Source: Candidatus Staskawiczbacteria bacterium (lineage in GTDB: Bacteria > Patescibacteriota > Minisyncoccia > Minisyncoccales > Staskawiczbacteraceae). From it: DNA of 64,000 bases. The notes beneath the pieces were generated by a model that saw nothing but the letters and a program-made list of their open reading frames with translations, was not told the DNA's origin and searched no databases. The position numbers were made by a program, and so were the translations under genes. Shown here in pieces: positions 4,839-62,993 of the stretch. The DNA lies in contig CAIMWV010000035.1 of NCBI GenBank assembly GCA_903845295.1, positions 924-64,923 of the forward strand, read 5' to 3'. Position 1 is the first letter of the stretch, and the number at the start of each line of letters is the position of its first letter.

Positions 4839-5519
4839 TTATTTATATATCCACAGTTTGGCCGACATCCCATTTTTCAGTTCCGGATATTGCGCTATAT
4901 TGAATCTTACTTTAACATCAAAATCCATTTCTTGCCTTGTACCCGATATATTGAAAACAATATCTCCCGCGTTTGAGGTCGGGCTTATTTCATCTACAAT
5001 TCCGGAATATTCTTTTGAGCCGAAAGTATCAACAGTGAAAATAGCTTCTTGCCCGATTTTTATATCCTTTAACCCCTTATCTTCTTGGACTTGCCCGACA
5101 ACTCTTAAATCATTTGGATTTATCATTGTGGCTACTGCCTGGGCTGGCGCGAAAGAAGCTCCTATATTTGTGTTTATAGATAGAATTTGGCCGTCTGAGC
5201 TGGCTTTTATCAATTCGTTGCCGATTCTGGCGATAGGTGCTGACATTTTAACTAAATCTCCGACATTAACATATACTTCCTGCAGGGTTCCGCCGACTGT
5301 CGGAGCTAAATTAGTCACAGGAGCTGATACAGAAGCATTTTCTATATAAACCCTTGCAGAAACAATGTTCCAATATATAAGCCCTCCAATGCCGGCTAAA
5401 ATTATTAAGCCAAATGCAATTACTATGATTATTCTATTGCGGGTGCCTTTTATTATTTTTTCTTCCTTGGCTTCCAAAACTCCGACAACAGAAGATATTT
5501 TTTCTAAATTAGTTTCCAT
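4839..5519 (-). CDS. HlyD-family membrane fusion protein (EmrA-like, short)
   Basis: N-terminal TM helix followed by a beta-barrel/lipoyl-like region with GDLVKMSAPIARI motifs. Start abuts the stop of the MFS pump gene. Confidence 0.7.
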   Translation of the reverse strand: METNLEKISSVVGVLEAKEEKIIKGTRNRIIIVIAFGLIILAGIGGLIYWNIVSARVYIENASVSAPVTNLAPTVGGTLQEVYVNVGDLVKMSAPIARIGNELIKASSDGQILSINTNIGASFAPAQAVATMINPNDLRVVGQVQEDKGLKDIKIGQEAIFTVDTFGSKEYSGIVDEISPTSNAGDIVFNISGTRQEMDFDVKVRFNIAQYPELKNGMSAKLWIYK

Positions 5520-29483: not shown

Positions 29484-29530
29484 TAAATATGCAAGGTCTA
29501 GCTAAGAGGCATTAATGCCTAGCTATGGCA

Positions 29531-30286
29531 CTATTTTTGCATAGTCTCAGTTTTTTCCCTTTTACTGCTTGATTCGGAATAGGATCTTGGCACCTTCCCC
29601 GGGATCTTTAAAAACTTACGTATGCTATCGCGTATACTAATTCTCATTTTATCAAAAATATTGGGTTCTTGAACCTTCTGTTCCTTCAATGGGATATATA
29701 GTGGTTCTCCCGGGCCCATTTTTGAAACATCCTCATTTAAATTGATTCCGCTTGCAATATCCCCCTCGGGGAGGTCTTCTGTGGTTTCGTTTTTCGGATT
29801 TTTTATTTCCGGCGCAGCATTTTGCGGAGTTTCTGTTACCCAGTCTACATTGGCAAGTTTTTCATAAAGTTCTTCAGTTTCCTTACGATGGGGTTTTAGT
29901 CTCATTTTACTGCTTGATTTAGATCCGGGTTTGATTCTTTTTGTTTCATTTTTTGCCTGCTGTCCGGACTGTTCTGGACTTTCTGCCACACCGGTTGGCT
30001 CGCCGGATTCGCCGGCTGTCCCACCTTCTTCTAATGTTGCTATCTCTCCCCCCGGCTCTGTATTAAATTTTCCTGATTCGATTGACATAAAATATATGAA
30101 ATTATTTTTTATGAGTTTTATTATACCACATATTTCAAAAATACAAAAGTTTTGTAAAGGTTTGATTAAAATTGCAAAAAAAAGAAGCAGAAAATCCTGC
30201 TCCATACTGCTGAACACGTCTCTGTTCCAGCTTTGAATTCTCGGAGAAACCGCTATTTCGGGCTGCCTGAAACGCAATCCGGGCAA
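29531..30286 (-). CDS. Hypothetical charged low-complexity protein (real start probably internal, MSIESGKF)
   Basis: E/K/P-rich sequence with no recognisable domain. Confidence 0.35.
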   Translation of the reverse strand: MPGLRFRQPEIAVSPRIQSWNRDVFSSMEQDFLLLFFAILIKPLQNFCIFEICGIIKLIKNNFIYFMSIESGKFNTEPGGEIATLEEGGTAGESGEPTGVAESPEQSGQQAKNETKRIKPGSKSSSKMRLKPHRKETEELYEKLANVDWVTETPQNAAPEIKNPKNETTEDLPEGDIASGINLNEDVSKMGPGEPLYIPLKEQKVQEPNIFDKMRISIRDSIRKFLKIPGKVPRSYSESSSKREKTETMQK

Positions 30287-30546
30287 ACCTCAATGTTTGG
30301 GGTCAACTGGATGAAACCGCTCCCGCAATTTCTGCAAGGAATGATTTTTTCGCGCCTTTCACGCCGGTGGCAGGTGGCGGCAATCAGATAAAGCACTGCA
30401 GCCATAAAGGCGATGCACCCAATGCCGGCGTACAAAAGGCCGACTGCTATTTCTTTCCTTACCAGCGCAAAAAGCGCCAGCACCAAAAAAAACAACAACA
30501 TGGCCACTCCTGCACAGAGACCTAAAAGCGGTTTATTCATCAGCAC
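30253..30546 (-). CDS. Small membrane protein with a C-terminal zinc-ribbon (CRNCG...CPDC)
   Basis: Two TM helices followed by CxxC-x15-CxxC. Confidence 0.45.
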   Translation of the reverse strand: MLMNKPLLGLCAGVAMLLFFLVLALFALVRKEIAVGLLYAGIGCIAFMAAVLYLIAATCHRRERREKIIPCRNCGSGFIQLTPNIEVCPDCVSGSPK

Positions 30547-30690
30547 CCTCCTTCAACGAACCATACTCTACGCACAATGCGCAAAGTTACTGGTTTTTGC
30601 CAGTCCCCAGTCCTTATATAATAATCTTATTTTTGACCATTGTCAATTGTGTATTACATAAATATCTTGACAATTATCCCTTTATCTATC

Positions 30691-30720
30691 AAAAAAGCCA
30701 CCTTAATCAAAGGTGGCTTT
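30691..30720 (-). terminator. Terminator (GCCACC-TTAATCAAA-GGTGGC with T6 on the minus strand)
   Basis: Stem preceded by A6 on the plus strand. Downstream of the tRNA-Gln copies on the minus strand. Confidence 0.65.
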
Positions 30721-30730
30721 GTCGCACAAT
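30718..30730. repeat. Copy c of the 13-bp palindromic motif (TTTGTCGCACAAT)
   Basis: Between the degenerate tRNA-Gln copy and the terminator hairpin. Confidence 0.7.
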
Positions 30731-30744
30731 GGAATTTGCTGCGG

Positions 30745-30820
30745 GACCTGCCTGCCGGCAGGCTTTGATTCTAACCAAGGTACTAGCCTTCAAAGGGCCA
30801 TGTCTACTTCACCCCGCCAA
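30745..30820 (-). pseudogene. Degenerate tandem copy of tRNA-Gln (retains the anticodon arm CCTTCAAAGGGCC and a T-arm-like segment; D-arm replaced; contains an inserted GCCTGCCGGCAGGC palindrome)
   Basis: About 45 nt are near-identical to the intact tRNA-Gln 80 bp away, but the acceptor and D-arm pairing is lost. Confidence 0.5.
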
Positions 30821-30845
30821 ATTTATCTTTACTTTTGAGCAAAGC

Positions 30846-30916
30846 TGCGGGACTTGGATTCGAACCAAGATACTAGCCTTCAAAGGGCCATGTCCTACCA
30901 TTAGACGATCCCGCAG
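30846..30916 (-). tRNA. tRNA-Gln (anticodon TTG)
   Basis: Manual fold: acceptor TGCGGGA/TCCCGCA, D-arm GTCT/GGAC, anticodon stem TGGCC/GGCTA with loop CTTTGAA, T-arm CTTGG-TTCGAAT-CCAAG, discriminator G. Confidence 0.9.
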
Positions 30917-31160
30917 CTTTGCTCAAAAACCTTTTTAATGTGGCACCGCCATGCCAACTTTTGATTTGCTTTTCTCTTTGCCTAGCTTTCCCGTAATCTT
31001 TATATTCTTGAAAATAAATTATGCTCCATAGAGTGCCAAGTTTAGTCGAATATACTTCCCCGCGATTGTGTTTCAACAAACGCTTTTTCGGGTCTAACTT
31101 TGTAATCCCTACATAATGTTTTCCTTTGTCATTTTCAAGAATATAAAGATTACAATTCAT
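30873..31160 (-). CDS. GIY-YIG nuclease superfamily protein (COG2827/YhbQ-like). Start taken at MNCNLYIL. The C-terminal ~15 codons overlap tRNA-Gln on the same strand.
   Basis: GIY-YIG core LYILENDKGKHYVGITKLDPKKRLLKHN...YSTKLGTLWSIIYFQEYKDYGKARQREKQIKSW. Confidence 0.65.
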   Translation of the reverse strand: MNCNLYILENDKGKHYVGITKLDPKKRLLKHNRGEVYSTKLGTLWSIIYFQEYKDYGKARQREKQIKSWHGGATLKRFLSKAAGSSNGRTWPFEG

Positions 31161-31174
31161 CAATTTAAATTTGG

Positions 31175-31201
31175 CGGGGCAAGTTAGACGATCCCGCAAT
31201 A
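31175..31201 (-). repeat. Duplicate of the first 15 nt of tRNA-Gln (TGCGGGATCGTCTAA) lying upstream of the GIY-YIG gene
   Basis: Exact 15-nt match to the tRNA-Gln 5' end followed by divergence. It falls inside the over-extended N-terminus of the ORF-track GIY-YIG ORF. Confidence 0.45.
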
Positions 31202-31236
31202 ATAGATTCACTACTGAAAGATTCTTTTTTATAATA

Positions 31237-33042
31237 TCATTTTTTTCCAGATTTTTCAATTGTTTGGCCGCCAGATTGCAGATAAAAATTTTCTTCTGAA
31301 AAATCTAGTTGCTTGGTTGTTTTATCAATTTTTACCGTCAACCCGAGCCCGTTACGTACATTTTCATTAAAGTATTGGTCAAAAATAAAGTTTCCAAGAG
31401 AATAATAAATTCTCTTGCCGTTATAAACCTCCGGGACACCCCCCGGGCCTTCTATCACATGCGGATGGGCGCCAACAACCAAATCTGATCCCGCGTCTAT
31501 AAATTGGCGGGCCAGCTCCTCTTGTCCATCTGTAGGCGTTAAAGAGTATTCTACTCCCCAGTGGCTGAACACAACCACAATATCTGACTCAGATTTTATT
31601 TTCTTTATCTCGTTGATCGTAGCTTTTTGTTCATCGCCAATATCGTTGCCTGAAAATTCGTTATAACTTACAAATGCAATTTTAATGCCTCCTATATCTT
31701 CAACCGCGCTCTTTTCCCCGCCTGGTTCGCCAAAATAATCAACGTTGGCGCCGCTCAAATATTTTTCCGTAGAATTCAAGCCTTCTTGGCCAAAATTTAA
31801 AATATGATTATTTCCCAGATCAACTAATCTGATATTTTCCATAAAAAGGGTTCCGGCTAGGCTAGGGTCAAAGGTAAAAAAATAATTGTCTATACTGCCC
31901 GGAATTGTTCCGGAGCTAATTGATTTATTATCTGTGATGGGGCCCTCAAGGTTTGCAACGACTAAATCATTATCTGAAAGCAATGGAGATATTTTATCAA
32001 AAATAAATTCATTGCCGCCGTTATTTTTTGCATAATATCTTATTCCGCGGTCAAACATCAAATCACCAACGAATAAAATTTGCGCATAATCTTTTTTTGC
32101 ATAATAGCCGGACACATAGCTTGTCACTGAATTTTCATCTTCGCCGGATACGTCAAAAGAATTTTTATTATCAACAATGGTAAAATTATCTTGGTTCCCC
32201 GTTAAAAATCCTCTCAATGTTGCAAGGCATTGTTTGCAATCATTCGTAACTTGATTGATGTCATCTGCGTTTAAATTATCCAATGCATCTGTGCTTTTTT
32301 TGTCATTTGCTTTTGCCTCCTCTACAGACGAATCATGGGAAAAATCACTGCTGACTATTAAAATAGAGCTGTTATGCGATATTTTTTTGATTTCCCTCCC
32401 TAAATCTAAAAAATCAGCATAGGGCAAATTATTCCTTAATACTAGCGGCACAATTTTTGCATTTGGAAAAAACTTTTTAACAAATGGTATCTCTACATAA
32501 ATCCCGTGTTCAAGGCCCAAAACAGAATCTTTTGTTTCGACTCCTCCGTTATCTAACAAAGATTTAACTGAATTGCAGTCTGTCTGTAGTTGGCCGAATG
32601 GCGTAGTCCAATCAAGATAACTTGTGTAAGCAATTGTTTCCGGCTTGAAATAATTATTGTAATGGTCAGGGGAAACTAAAAAAACAGTTAAAATTTTATC
32701 GCTGCCAATCCTATTATAAAAATCGGCGATTAATTGTTTTGCCAGAAAATGATGTGAAATTATTCCGGCATCGGCATTGGCCTCCTGCGCCGGATTTTTC
32801 AATTTCGAAAAGACATCTTTATATTCCTCGGGATTATTGAAAACACTGGCTAAAAAGGTCTGCTTCTTAATTTGAAACACACTCCTTGGGTTGCCTTGAT
32901 AATTCTTAACAAAAAAAACACCAGCCGTTGTTATTAAAATAACAACGGCCAGAGTTATTAATGCTGATATTAAGGTTATTTCACCAAATCTTTGTTCCAC
33001 CATGGCATTTGCAATTTTTGCGGCGCGCTGGAATATTCCCAC
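31237..33042 (-). CDS. Fusion protein: N-terminal MEMO1/AmmeMemoRadiSam-system-protein-B-like domain plus C-terminal CapA-family (PGA_cap) metallophosphatase
   Basis: The C-terminus has CapA motifs (FVGDLMFDR, DLVVANLEGPIT, GNNHILNFG, FSHWGVEYS, VVGAHPHVIEG, YSLGNFIFDQ). The N-terminal ~280 aa resembles the MEMO/LigB fold (SHHF...SPDHY), assigned with lower confidence. Confidence 0.6.
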   Translation of the reverse strand: MGIFQRAAKIANAMVEQRFGEITLISALITLAVVILITTAGVFFVKNYQGNPRSVFQIKKQTFLASVFNNPEEYKDVFSKLKNPAQEANADAGIISHHFLAKQLIADFYNRIGSDKILTVFLVSPDHYNNYFKPETIAYTSYLDWTTPFGQLQTDCNSVKSLLDNGGVETKDSVLGLEHGIYVEIPFVKKFFPNAKIVPLVLRNNLPYADFLDLGREIKKISHNSSILIVSSDFSHDSSVEEAKANDKKSTDALDNLNADDINQVTNDCKQCLATLRGFLTGNQDNFTIVDNKNSFDVSGEDENSVTSYVSGYYAKKDYAQILFVGDLMFDRGIRYYAKNNGGNEFIFDKISPLLSDNDLVVANLEGPITDNKSISSGTIPGSIDNYFFTFDPSLAGTLFMENIRLVDLGNNHILNFGQEGLNSTEKYLSGANVDYFGEPGGEKSAVEDIGGIKIAFVSYNEFSGNDIGDEQKATINEIKKIKSESDIVVVFSHWGVEYSLTPTDGQEELARQFIDAGSDLVVGAHPHVIEGPGGVPEVYNGKRIYYSLGNFIFDQYFNENVRNGLGLTVKIDKTTKQLDFSEENFYLQSGGQTIEKSGKK

Positions 33043-62735: not shown

Positions 62736-62846
62736 AAAAATTTGTGGGCGCGTGTGGACTCGAAAAGTTGCCCGAAGGCATCGCCTCCTCGCTTCGCTCG
62801 TCGCGATTCAGGGAGTCCCGCTTTGCGGGACGACCTCACCGACTTG

Positions 62847-62953
62847 CCCCGTTAGATATTTTTGTGGGCATTATAGGGGTCGAACCTATGGCCTTTCCGA
62901 TGTGAACGGAACGCTCTACCGCTGAGCTAAATGCCCATAGATATCTAACGGGG
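62847..62953. repeat. Inverted-repeat element E3: 13-bp perfect arms CCCCGTTAGATAT / ATATCTAACGGGG that enclose tRNA-Val
   Basis: Perfect inverted repeat. Same CCCGTTAGA core as E1 and E2. Confidence 0.55.
62865..62936 (-). tRNA. tRNA-Val (anticodon CAC)
   Basis: Acceptor GGGCATT/AATGCCC, D-arm GCTC-AGCGGTA-GAGC, anticodon stem TTCCG/CGGAA with loop TTCACAT, T-arm ATAGG-TTCGACC-CCTAT, discriminator A. Confidence 0.9.
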
Positions 62954-62961
62954 TGAATGAA

Positions 62962-62993
62962 CGGTGCGCTCTAACCAGCTGAGCTACGTGCCC
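62962..62993 (-). pseudogene. tRNA 5' half (acceptor + D-arm + 5' strand of anticodon stem: GGGCACGTAGCTCAGCTGGTTAGAGCGCACCG) with no contiguous 3' half
   Basis: Canonical acceptor and D-arm sequence. The complementary anticodon-stem strand CGGTG occurs only about 150 nt downstream, after the inverted-repeat-flanked tRNA-Val, at 62805-62809. Confidence 0.5.

Follow-up and report, generated by a model that had tools for sequence, protein, structure and literature searches.

A tRNA-Gln gene split at its D loop around a GIY-YIG nuclease gene and a second tRNA-Gln in Candidatus Staskawiczbacteria

In the 64,000-nt stretch of Candidatus Staskawiczbacteria DNA analysed here (the window), a single tRNA-Gln gene on the minus strand is split at the TGG of its D loop, and a GIY-YIG gene and an intact tRNA-Gln lie inside it. 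The insert measures 377 nt and stands in place of the D-loop TGG (positions 16-19) of the resident gene, separating a 5' part (nt 1-15) from a 3' part (nt 20-73). Its ends form inverted arms, CTTGCCCCGCCAAATTT and AAATTTGGCGGGGTGAAG, and the cargo between them consists of the GIY-YIG ORF and, directly after it, an intact tRNA-Gln(UUG). The inner tRNA-Gln replaces the destroyed resident one. What is left of the old gene is a 5' stub of 15 nt on the upstream side and, downstream, a 3' part in decay; the promoter and terminator of that gene now flank the whole unit. We think it fairly probable that the resident tRNA-Gln(UUG) was invaded by a small selfish nuclease cassette of the homing type, which brought its own replacement tRNA. 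The features of the locus are as follows:

31231-31259, minus strand: sigma-70-like promoter of the resident tRNA-Gln, TTGAAA-17-(TG)TATTAT, in an AT-rich flank that is homologous in relatives, where it lies directly 5' of a plain tRNA-Gln
31184-31198, minus strand: outer tRNA-Gln 5' fragment, nt 1-15 (TGCGGGATCGTCTAA), an exact repeat of 30915-30901
31166-31183, minus strand: left arm X of the insert, CTTGCCCCGCCAAATTTA, inverted repeat with arm Y
30873-31160, minus strand: GIY-YIG nuclease ORF, 95 aa, ATG at 31160, TAG at 30875-30873 (Pfam PF01541)
31131-31153, minus strand: arm a of IR1, a 23-nt perfect inverted repeat within the CDS (codons 3-10), from the repeat search
30993-31015, minus strand: arm b of IR1, from the repeat search and part of the MFE fold
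30833-30928, minus strand: IR2, an inverted repeat forming a 20-bp perfect stem around the inner tRNA (7-bp acceptor stem plus 13-bp extension)
30845-30915, minus strand: inner intact tRNA-Gln(UUG), called by ARAGORN and by Rfam RF00005 (61.3 bits, E 3.6e-12)
30807-30825, minus strand: right arm Y of the insert, TAAATTTGGCGGGGTGAAG, inverted repeat with arm X
30739-30806, minus strand: outer tRNA-Gln 3' part, a 42-nt stretch 93% identical to the inner tRNA plus 13 nt matching the acceptor 3' end
30747-30762, minus strand: 16-nt GC palindrome, CCTGCCGGCAGGCAGG, in the outer copy, separating the T arm from the acceptor 3' strand
30719-30729, minus strand: motif TTGTGCGACAA, downstream of the outer copy
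30688-30720, minus strand: intrinsic terminator, an 11-bp GC-containing hairpin (30720-30694) with a T run, aligned as terminator-like in the Rfam scan

The promoter at 31231-31259 would drive the whole unit. The outer 5' fragment runs from the acceptor 5' strand through that of the D stem to the second base of the D loop, and the outer 3' part spans the D-stem 3' strand, the anticodon arm, the T arm and the acceptor 3' strand. Alignment to the inner tRNA, presumably the functional gene, shows that this 3' part has degenerated: its D stem is short of one nucleotide, it carries C56A and a mismatch in the T stem, and the palindrome is inserted; the same type of palindrome occurs in the 5' fragment of locus L018 and in a third fragment of L034. 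CTTG-CCCCGCC ... GGCGGGG-TGAAG is the invariant core of the two arms. The 5' fragment is linked to the 3' copy by a 24-nt inverted repeat (31189-31166 / 30825-30802) that is absent from an earlier sequence-only reading of this DNA. The 20-bp perfect stem around the intact tRNA had likewise gone unnoticed there; the final codons of the GIY-YIG core supply its 5' strand. In the predicted fold of the transcript, one cloverleaf lies within another (MFE -169.8 kcal/mol, z -8.7).

The sequence-only reading had described a tRNA-Gln(TTG) locus bracketed by partial duplicates, the typical scar of site-specific insertion, and its elements are all present: the exact 15-nt copy of the 5' end (31198-31184 against 30915-30901), the intact tRNA (30915-30845), the degenerate 3' copy with its GC palindrome (30806-30739 and 30762-30747), and the motif copy and terminator downstream (30729-30719 and 30720-30694). 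The end of the CDS within the tRNA also proved real, the overlap comprising 43 nt, that is, 14 codons and the stop. What did not hold is the relation between these parts, as the intact tRNA is cargo inside the insert, and the two fragments, taken for independent partial duplications, are instead two halves of one gene, split at the D-loop TGG. A 15-nt match has a chance expectation of about 1e-4 in 64 kb, and this exact 15-mer, the 42-nt match at 93% identity and the recurrence in about 20 genomes exclude chance likeness of short fragments. Partial tRNA repeats beside foreign DNA are typical leftovers of integrase-type integrative elements, but such a scar should show a repeated segment from the tRNA 3' end and an integrase-encoding element of kb size. 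Here a single gene accounts for both repeats, its 5' stub and its 3' remainder, the insert measures just 377 nt, no integrase is encoded in or next to the unit, as the sequence-only reading had stated, and the ORFs around the site include no recombinase. We therefore give next to no credence to an integrase scar or to chance.

Insertion into a resident tRNA-Gln gene, also proposed from the sequence, is borne out at the same site in relatives. Five syntenic relatives (L035, L036, L037, L163 and L164) have an empty site, a plain tRNA-Gln without ORF, arms or fragments, in the conserved order DUF3160, Memo/PGA_cap, tRNA-Gln, with a neighbour protein 65-69% identical. In the closest relative, L034 (neighbour protein 80% identical), the ORF is absent; the resident flank runs straight into an intact tRNA, after which come IR2 and Y arms that lack their partners, and then the 3' copy. 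From its sequence, this form seems to match a deletion of the nuclease gene between the two 15-nt repeats. The conserved site thus shows a presence/absence polymorphism, with five plain forms and one ORF-less derivative. No polymorphism was found within the species when strains were traced through an identical neighbour protein, the cassette being present in 8/8 near-identical strains. Between the window and L038, FtsX is 41% and the nuclease 80% identical. We rejected this contrast as a weak test of horizontal transfer; with dS ~1 and dN/dS ~0.1, purifying selection alone suffices to account for it.

The same module is found in about 20 other Patescibacteria genomes. An intact tRNA-Gln begins 0-9 nt after the ORF in 20 of the 21 Patescibacteria loci (the tRNA of L013 is partly masked and was read by eye for this count), and most of these loci also have the fragment and arm X upstream and arm Y and the 3' part downstream. 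In all relatives examined the GIY-YIG gene adjoins a tRNA, and in L005 the tRNA after the ORF itself bears two hairpins. In other genomes, the outer acceptor halves pair with each other, the 5' fragment with the far-downstream acceptor 3' strand. In L002, L012, L016 and L017 the outer acceptor differs from the inner tRNA by compensatory changes, indicating that inner and outer genes have separate histories; in L006 and L034 the outer 3' parts are identical to the inner tRNA. IR2 is present in 20/20 Gln-linked loci with many compensatory changes, its non-Watson-Crick pairs being G-U in 18 cases versus A-C in 7. Across 12 loci, the GC core and the CTTG flank of arm X are invariant, and the distal AT part, which often contains the ORF start codon, covaries. 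A single GIY-YIG subfamily shows linkage to tRNAs of four identities (Thr, Lys, Met and Phe), Bacteroidota have arrays of tRNA-Pro, ORF and tRNA-Pro with the D arm CCCCGCC-NNN-GGCGGGG, and in a tRNA-Val nest the arm ends are the same but inversely oriented. The viral contigs scanned held no relatives.

The protein matches Pfam PF01541 with an E value of 9.5e-13 (48.7 bits, cut-off 22.6). Its catalytic core of 80 aa ends at about 30921, and the last 14 codons and the TAG are tRNA sequence; in many homologous ORFs the reading frame likewise continues across the tRNA up to a final FGGVK and stop, supplied by arm Y and the TAG after it. Y6, Y16, G18, R27 and E63 do not vary among 29 relatives, and H31 hardly does. 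Over positions 1-68, the family profile matches the structures of BH0048 (1zg2, E 2.6e-6) and EF2693 (1ywl, E 1.3e-5), and it also matches eukaryotic SLX1 (7wme, E 3e-3). Judged by these matches, the protein is a UPF0213 / YhbQ / COG2827-like single-domain GIY-YIG of the SLX1-like branch. Like those proteins it has no appended DNA-binding domain, and to our knowledge no link of UPF0213/YhbQ or SLX1 proteins to tRNA genes or to a cognate hairpin has been described. No second Pfam domain or DNA-binding module (NUMOD, IENR1, HTH) was detected, only the 80-aa core being conserved, whereas Seg- and Mob-type enzymes such as I-TevI and SegB combine a catalytic domain with a DNA-binding module. NCBIfam has no model matching the protein, hence no curated subfamily, PADLOC gave no match and PHROGs a weak one only; these results rule out a known defence system or named family. 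The nuclease is under purifying selection (dN/dS 0.08-0.17), and synonymous divergence among cassettes is saturated (dS ~1). Among close relatives, the IR1 arms differ at 1/46 positions versus 44/194 in the rest of the ORF (p = 6e-4). IR1 is retained in the close relatives L038 and L039; as a family-wide feature it was rejected, being specific to the closest subclade.

The GC hairpin of the arms also occurs in closed form. In at least 37 D loops, belonging to tRNAs of about 12 amino-acid identities, precisely (T)TGG/CGG gives way to such a closed hairpin; an intact tRNA lies beside each of them, with the same anticodon in the 9 loci checked by eye. Among the matches listed, the hairpin has the same orientation as the tRNA in 32 cases and the reverse in none, a GIY-YIG gene lies within ~300 nt in 17/80 hairpin loci, and the copies, which come from many samples, are confined to tRNA genes and lack a target-site duplication. 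Set against MITE- and REP-like elements, the relevant traits are the same ends in at least 37 D loops, this proximity to GIY-YIG genes (17 of 80 listed loci) and the missing target-site duplication. The 64-kb window holds one other hairpin copy. Hairpins are also found between nt 33 and 34 and in the T arm, always in loops of the cloverleaf, and several kinds of GC hairpin occur, in redundant tRNA copies only. The outer copies of L072, L092 and L106 are called as tRNAs once the hairpin is swapped for TGG. P-nucleotide-like repair products were rejected as the source of the palindromes, the hairpin core being the same in unrelated tRNA contexts.

Under the homing-type invasion that we favour, the nuclease would cut tRNA-gene DNA at or near the conserved D-loop segment, and an allele with the cassette would serve as template for repair of the break, homology being provided by the tRNA halves and their flanks. 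Repair would copy the nuclease and the rescue tRNA into the gene, an intron-less homing with a built-in rescue copy, and the hairpin replacing TGG would make the split copy uncuttable. In the RNA, arm X would pair with arm Y across the ribosome-loading region, IR1 would bury codons 3-10, and IR2 would set the tRNA on its 20-bp stem; in the folding model, the three together probably keep nuclease translation low and guide tRNA release. The nuclease gene could later be lost through recombination between the 15-nt repeats, as apparently happened in L034. The sequence-only reading had put forward the GIY-YIG protein as the candidate mobility factor, a role that would fit the family-wide linkage. 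We infer the D-loop target from the insertion point only, the same 3-4 nt being replaced in at least 37 D loops.

Several findings count against the cassette reading. The D loop of the inner tRNA is the same as the presumed target, so that the inner tRNA should be cuttable too; the 80-aa protein has no DNA-binding domain, unlike SegB or I-TevI; fixation in all 8 strains with dS ~1 gives no sign of recent transfer; and the scan of viral contigs yielded no relatives. In addition, the arm core is invariant while the protein is only ~50% identical, implying a hairpin function beyond the needs of simple homing. A tentative extension, which we regard as possible rather than probable, is a natural 'break-and-rescue' parasite of tRNA genes, in which a minimal, structure-reading GIY-YIG nuclease would recognise the D loop in practically any tRNA gene, leave a hairpin in place of G18-G19 and persist through an intact tRNA copy. 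The D loop would perhaps be recognised as folded single-stranded DNA at the transcribed gene.

One alternative is a domesticated, resident system, in which the GIY-YIG protein would have a host function at tRNA genes or transcripts, such as structure-specific processing or repair where tRNA loci are highly transcribed and rich in hairpins, the split copies would be by-products of local tandem duplication, and the GC hairpins would be REP-like palindromes accumulating in dead copies. Strong purifying selection (dN/dS 0.08-0.17) with old divergence (dS ~1), fixation in 8/8 near-identical strains, a protein without DNA-binding domain whose nearest structures are single-domain UPF0213 proteins and the structure-specific nuclease SLX1, and the several kinds of GC hairpin restricted to redundant copies all agree with it, as does a hairpin core invariant across phyla, which suggests a specific partnership of protein and hairpin. 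We nevertheless judge a resident function unlikely. The unit is lineage-specific at a syntenic site that is empty in five relatives, L034 lost the ORF without visible consequence, one protein subfamily sits on at least four tRNA identities, and selfish repeats typically form tandem arrays and truncated copies such as those in Bacteroidota. Moreover, random duplication does not explain the replacement of the same 3-4 nt in about 12 tRNA identities, in one orientation among the matches listed.

A further alternative places the event at the RNA level. The insert would then be a huge D-loop intron or processing scaffold, from which RNase P and RNase Z would free the inner tRNA, while the outer halves, held by X:Y and IR2, would be cut and ligated into a second tRNA-Gln, and the closed hairpins would be ORF-less mini-introns of bacterial tRNAs. 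In archaeal tRNA introns and split tRNAs (Nanoarchaeum, Caldivirga), EndA cuts bulge-helix-bulge junctions and the exons yield functional tRNAs. The layout here resembles them in the interruption at loop positions, the D loop included, in the GC-rich complementary sequences that join the halves, comparable to the leaders of split tRNAs, and in small inserts of one family at several positions of several tRNAs. The restriction of hairpins to cloverleaf loops (D loop, nt 33/34, T arm), the fixed orientation of the D-loop hairpin, the covarying stems with G-U exceeding A-C pairs (18:7 and 11:4), the two hairpins in the tRNA following the L005 ORF, the tRNA-callable outer copies of L072, L092 and L106 and the intact 3' sequences of L006 and L034, identical to the inner tRNA, are consistent with RNA-level processing as well.

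In contrast to the archaeal cases, the host is a bacterium, the interrupted copies are redundant, and decayed here, and the insert holds a whole second tRNA. The outer gene in the window is so degenerate that ARAGORN rejects it even after removal of the inserts, and the intron reading therefore fails for this window. Except for L005, whose wider context is beyond view, the hairpin-bearing copies examined all have an intact neighbour tRNA, which makes them redundant, and the inner and outer anticodons are identical. The junction consists, from sequence and fold, of the 4-bp D stem, a 2/1 internal loop, 3 bp, a 1/2 loop and a 14-bp helix; by eye, neither a bulge-helix-bulge nor a kink-turn fits. 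A scan of positions 29500-32500 against Rfam (E <= 1) detected no group I core or other intron RNA, only the tRNA and a terminator-like chance match. A group I intron was accordingly discarded, as the unit has no ribozyme core and lies in the D loop, not the anticodon loop. The reversed arm ends of the tRNA-Val nest point to an element acting on DNA, and we know of no bacterial enzyme set for such splicing. Taken together, these points make RNA-level processing quite improbable at this locus. In a bolder variant, hairpin-bearing tRNAs may be spliced in bacteria, in genomes other than the present one.

Among known systems, the cassette that we favour is, by its layout, analogous to SegB of phage T4, a free-standing GIY-YIG homing endonuclease of the T4 tRNA gene cluster that recognises a 27-bp site with the conserved tRNA T-loop motif at its centre, spreads by break repair and takes neighbouring tRNA genes along (PMC2330249). 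Both are GIY-YIG genes among tRNA genes with a site, presumed in our case, built on a universally conserved tRNA motif. SegB is larger, lies between genes, targets the T-loop motif, is phage-borne, and lacks bounding inverted arms, a conserved GC hairpin and a nested tRNA; the cassette has all three of these, lies inside a gene on a Patescibacteria chromosome, and would target the D loop. The rRNA genes (16S and 23S) of CPR bacteria contain insertions and introns bearing homing endonucleases, mostly at the tops or bases of stem-loops; most are LAGLIDADG genes in group I/II introns or unspliced inserts, GIY-YIG genes were sparse in that survey and judged to lie outside homing, and its main text does not include tRNA genes (PMC11270868). 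The organism group, the placement of endonuclease genes in conserved stable-RNA genes and the pattern of gain and loss are similar, but those insertions carry no replacement copy of the interrupted gene, and the cassette does. In synthetic 'home-and-rescue' or 'cleave-and-rescue' drives, an essential gene is broken by a nuclease cassette that also supplies a functional version of it. The logic of disruption and carried copy is the same, except that the rescue copy of the synthetic drives is recoded to be uncuttable, whereas the inner tRNA of the cassette keeps the presumed target sequence.

We found no description of tRNA-nested GIY-YIG cassettes or of D-loop hairpins in the literature searched, and the architecture, which recurs on many tRNA genes of ultra-small bacteria, looks like an undescribed selfish element that breaks a tRNA gene and supplies a replacement. 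It explains GIY-YIG "proteins" with tails of the type AAGSSNGRT...GSNPSPAAL...FGGVK as translated tRNA, that is, gene calls running through tRNA genes, and it distorts tRNA gene counts and pseudo-tRNA calls, hairpin-bearing copies being missed or miscalled. The element would add a second, chromosome-borne example, after T4 SegB, of a nuclease exploiting conserved tRNA motifs, with the distinctive twist that it is nested within the gene being replaced. If the break-and-rescue proposal is true, the closed hairpins would represent a novel kind of mobile mini-insertion specific to tRNAs, in a family extending over Patescibacteria and Bacteroidota at the least. If an 80-aa nuclease does find D loops without a DNA-binding domain, its mode of recognition, through structure, a partner hairpin or RNA, would be of interest, and the system could open a first way to the function of the UPF0213/YhbQ family, which is large and uncharacterised.

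The tRNA-Gln locus consists of one tRNA-Gln gene (outer tRNA-Gln), disrupted in its D loop by a cassette carrying a GIY-YIG nuclease gene and an intact copy of the same tRNA (inner tRNA-Gln). All the elements listed in the sequence-only reading (15-nt copy, GIY-YIG ORF, intact tRNA-Gln, degenerate copy, GC palindrome and terminator) were found on the minus strand.

Features of the tRNA-Gln locus
31259-31231, minus: sigma-70-like promoter, upstream of the 5' stub
31198-31184, minus: 5' stub of the outer tRNA-Gln, TGCGGGATCGTCTAA, identical to nt 1-15 of the inner tRNA-Gln(TTG)
31183-30807, minus: 377-nt insert, standing in for the D-loop nucleotides TGG
directly 3' of the 5' stub, minus: arm X, CTTGCCCCGCCAAATTTA, complementary to arm Y
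ATG 31160 to TAG 30875-30873, minus: GIY-YIG ORF (Pfam E 9.5e-13)
30915-30845, minus: inner intact tRNA-Gln(TTG), within the insert
3' of the inner tRNA, minus: arm Y, TAAATTTGGCGGGGTGAAG, inverted repeat with arm X
directly 3' of arm Y, minus: 3' part of the outer tRNA-Gln, starting TAGACATGGCCCTTTGAAGGCTAGTA..., from the D-stem 3' strand through the acceptor 3' end
end of the unit, minus: terminator hairpin, an inverted repeat

The 5' and 3' fragments, initially taken for partial duplicates, are real, but they are the two halves of one tRNA-Gln gene rather than separate duplicates. The ORF does end inside the inner tRNA, as suspected, overlapping it by 43 nt, and the inner acceptor stem is prolonged by 13 perfect base pairs into a 20-bp stem (IR2). 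The predicted RNA of the unit is a cloverleaf within a cloverleaf (MFE -169.8 kcal/mol; z -8.7 vs shuffles). The outer 3' part bears three substitutions, a 1-nt deletion and an inserted 16-nt GC palindrome; because ARAGORN made no call on the outer tRNA-Gln even with insert and palindrome taken out, this gene is dead in the window genome. The scar of an integrative element, proposed initially, was ruled out by the ORF content and repeat anatomy at the site, and chance resemblance of the fragments by the repeat matches.

The nuclease CDS also contains a 23-nt perfect inverted repeat, IR1 (31131-31153 and 30993-31015; codons NLYILEN vs FQEYKDY). IR1 is kept in two close relatives (22/23 at locus L038, 19 nt at locus L039) despite otherwise saturated synonymous sites, with changes at 1/46 arm sites vs 44/194 elsewhere in the ORF (p = 6e-4), and is missing from remoter members of the family. 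The repeat presumably folds in the mRNA into a stem that hides the ORF start.

The upstream neighbour of the cassette encodes a Memo/PGA_cap fusion, close homologues of which occur in Staskawiczbacteria-like Patescibacteria. The order DUF3160, Memo/PGA_cap, tRNA-Gln is conserved in five relatives (neighbour protein 65-69% identical), all of which provide the empty site sought: a plain tRNA-Gln, with ORF, arms and fragments absent. On this comparative evidence, the cassette is a lineage-specific insertion into a resident tRNA-Gln gene. At L034, the locus of the closest relative (neighbour protein 80% identical), the intact tRNA-Gln abuts the resident AT-rich flank. Behind it come the right-hand strand of the 20-bp stem, which no longer has a partner, then arm Y and a 3' copy that is intact. 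Recombination joining the 15-nt direct repeats seen in the window would give this layout, and is therefore a route by which the nuclease gene can be lost. The full cassette is present in 8/8 near-identical strains (public assemblies), among which no polymorphism was seen, and cassette comparisons, in which synonymous sites are saturated, revealed no recent transfer.

A protein search returned 137 relatives, whose called ORFs translate through the tRNA (...KAAGSSNGRT..F/SG..YLGSNPSPAAL...); many terminate FGGVK*, encoded by arm Y together with the TAG in the outer D stem, and some start RDRLTCPAK, corresponding to the 5' stub plus arm X. The ORF abuts a tRNA gene elsewhere too: an intact tRNA-Gln (UUG or CUG) lies 0-9 nt downstream in 20/21 Patescibacteria genome loci (the partly masked tRNA of L013 being judged by eye), and most have stub and arm X upstream and arm Y and 3' part downstream. 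The 5' stub base-pairs with the far-downstream acceptor strand, and compensatory changes set outer and inner tRNAs apart at seven loci, which therefore had two functional tRNAs that evolved separately. The cassettes compared all share the same arm cores and CTTG/TGAAG flanks; the distal AT part of the arms covaries and often includes the start codon. At all loci the inner acceptor stem is lengthened by 13-15 bp. This extension shows many compensatory changes, and its mismatches are more often G-U (18) than A-C (7), pointing to a stem that acts as RNA. Purifying selection acts on the nuclease (dN/dS 0.08-0.17, with synonymous sites saturated between cassettes), and domain and profile searches found no DNA-binding module in it.

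Homologous ORFs reaching arm Y (alignment A1) mostly use the ...FGGVK* frame (~15), with ~4 ending ...LAG* and essentially none in the third frame; where the order is tRNA/ORF/hairpin-tRNA, the ORF likewise closes ...LAPP..GGVK* across the closed hairpin. The frame across tRNA and hairpin may be maintained for some reason, one possibility being that RNase P cleavage would otherwise yield a stop-less mRNA. At locus L012 (~665-720), the outer tRNA-Gln is otherwise well formed but has the ochre-suppressor-like anticodon TTA, the inner one being TTG. L038 and L039 are complete Gln cassettes ~3 kb apart in opposite orientation on one 33.8-kb contig, differing at 20-24% of nucleotide sites (pS 0.53, pN 0.14). 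Each adjoins duplicated pieces of FtsX and DNA-alkylation genes. A serine recombinase gene is also next to each, full-length in one case and truncated in the other, and the pair may reflect an inverted segmental duplication or a segment that can invert.

We scanned metagenomes for closed hairpins, in which arms X and Y are joined by a short loop without an ORF (CTTGYCCCGC-N2-30-GCGGGRTGRAG); counts are lower bounds among the matches listed. At least 32 matches fall within tRNA D loops, every one oriented like its tRNA (reversed, 0). At least 37 hairpins that have a matching intact tRNA nearby take the place of precisely (T)TGG or CGG, which make up the G18-G19 segment; they lie in Tyr, Ile, Phe, Gln, Thr, Met, Val, Ser, Ala, Lys and other tRNAs. 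The intact tRNA is adjacent in each, with the same anticodon in 9/9 compared by eye. A GIY-YIG gene lies within ~300 nt of the hairpin in 17/80 of the loci listed. The layouts comprise fragment-with-hairpin/ORF/tRNA, fragment/tRNA, fragment/tRNA/ORF/hairpin-tRNA, tRNA/ORF/hairpin-tRNA and the nested form of the window, and a single GIY-YIG subfamily is linked to Thr, Lys, Met and Phe tRNA genes. Relatives in Bacteroidota (35-45% identity) have a normal tRNA-Pro and, 3' of it, up to three tandem units, each an ORF with its stop codon in the next tRNA and a tRNA-Pro with the D arm CCCCGCC-NNN-GGCGGGG; decayed copies have additional hairpins instead of the T arm. Nuclease, hairpin and intact tRNA are thus linked family-wide. 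A domesticated structure-specific nuclease, with the hairpins as REP-like passengers, would agree with the selection data and the SLX1-like affinity of the protein, but we consider it unlikely, as it leaves unexplained the empty sites, the ORF-less derivative, the spread across many tRNA identities and the precise site and orientation.

A second hairpin type, found 3' of the GIY-YIG ORF at four loci (L004, L005, L015, L016), has a GC stem covarying between genomes followed by (A)TAAA, and always lies in the anticodon loop between nt 33 and 34; its removal restores a perfect anticodon loop at L004 and L015. Only at L005 (1746-1860) is the ORF-following tRNA itself interrupted, by two hairpins in the anticodon loop, suggesting either a decaying cassette or that such hairpins are tolerated or removed. 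The hairpin pattern also matches an unrelated conserved leader, ..ACCTGAAT[CTTGCCCCGC-TTC-GCGGGATGAAG]CGTCTAATTTT..CAAGGGGCTCCTCATGAAAAT, 5' of an ORF at nine marine and sediment metagenome loci, which may be an undescribed cis-regulatory RNA.

The window has a second nested tRNA (62744-62993, minus strand), with no nuclease gene and a predicted nested cloverleaf fold (z -4.9). The outer tRNA-Val is split in the anticodon loop, and its 3' half carries several GC hairpin inserts.

Features of the tRNA-Val nest and 11-mer positions
62993-62958, minus: 5' half of the outer tRNA-Val
62957-62941, minus: first arm, TTCACCCCGTTAGATAT, preceding the inner tRNA-Val
62936-62864, minus: inner intact tRNA-Val(CAC), between the arms
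62859-62843, minus: second arm, ATATCTAACGGGGCAAG, 3' of the inner tRNA-Val
533, 13447, 15122, 30719, 35836, 41834, 56607, 58665, 63614, minus: 11-mer TTGTGCGACAA

Reverse-complementing the arm ends gives exactly those at tRNA-Gln, and the nest is therefore the same element type in opposite orientation. An RNA-level intron or split tRNA would account for the confinement of hairpins to loops and for the G-U bias; this explanation is nevertheless very improbable. It fails in the window because the outer gene is decayed and because every hairpin copy examined adjoins an intact tRNA, L005 excepted (wider context not seen); moreover, the window locus has neither a bulge-helix-bulge motif nor a ribozyme core, and the tRNA-Val nest has the same arm ends inverted.

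An insert of ~50-60 nt (..CGCGACGA.GC...GAGGAGGCGATGC.TTCGGGCAACTT) lies just 5' of the T loop in the dead tRNA-Val copy (62764-62813) and in a third tRNA-Gln 3' fragment of L034 (~5075-5135), and seems to be a further insert family specific to tRNA pseudo-copies. The 11-mer motif noted earlier occurs nine times (seven exact) vs 1.1 expected, on the minus strand only. Three inspected copies are intergenic, by terminators or just 5' of promoter-like sequence, and it also lies 5' of the tRNA-Gln promoter at L034. The motif has no relation to the cassette and probably serves as a regulatory or operator-like site.

The tRNA D-loop segment is among the most conserved DNA sequences of any genome. 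We propose that the nuclease cuts the DNA of tRNA genes at this segment or close to it, and that the cassette would then be copied in through repair from a cassette-bearing allele, with tRNA halves and flanks as homology arms; out-of-register repair would generate the tandem arrays and the 3' fragments piled downstream of active genes. RNA stems (X:Y over the start region, IR1 at codons 3-10 and IR2 enclosing the tRNA) plausibly keep translation low and steer processing. Difficulties for this homing reading are that the inner tRNA retains the presumed target, that the protein has no DNA-binding module and that neither recent transfer nor within-species polymorphism was seen; the invariant hairpin core implies some role, such as a binding site or immunity.

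The nearest systems on record are T4 SegB and, in rRNA genes of CPR bacteria, insertions that bear endonuclease genes. SegB, a GIY-YIG homing enzyme within a tRNA cluster, has a site built on the conserved T-loop motif, takes tRNA genes along when spreading, and is a direct precedent for GIY-YIG homing at tRNA genes (PMC2330249). The study of the CPR insertions found GIY-YIG genes only sparsely, and its main text makes no mention of tRNA genes (PMC11270868). We would class the cassette as a homing-type nuclease at tRNA genes, a kind already known. The full-text literature, whose coverage leaves out most subscription-journal papers, yielded no description of GIY-YIG cassettes nested with tRNAs or of hairpins in D loops. 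The architecture, in which one gene sits within the gene that it replaces and is joined by a dedicated hairpin, is therefore classed as undescribed in the literature searched. The nuclease and hairpin family has a broad reach, extending over ~12 tRNA identities and at least two phyla.
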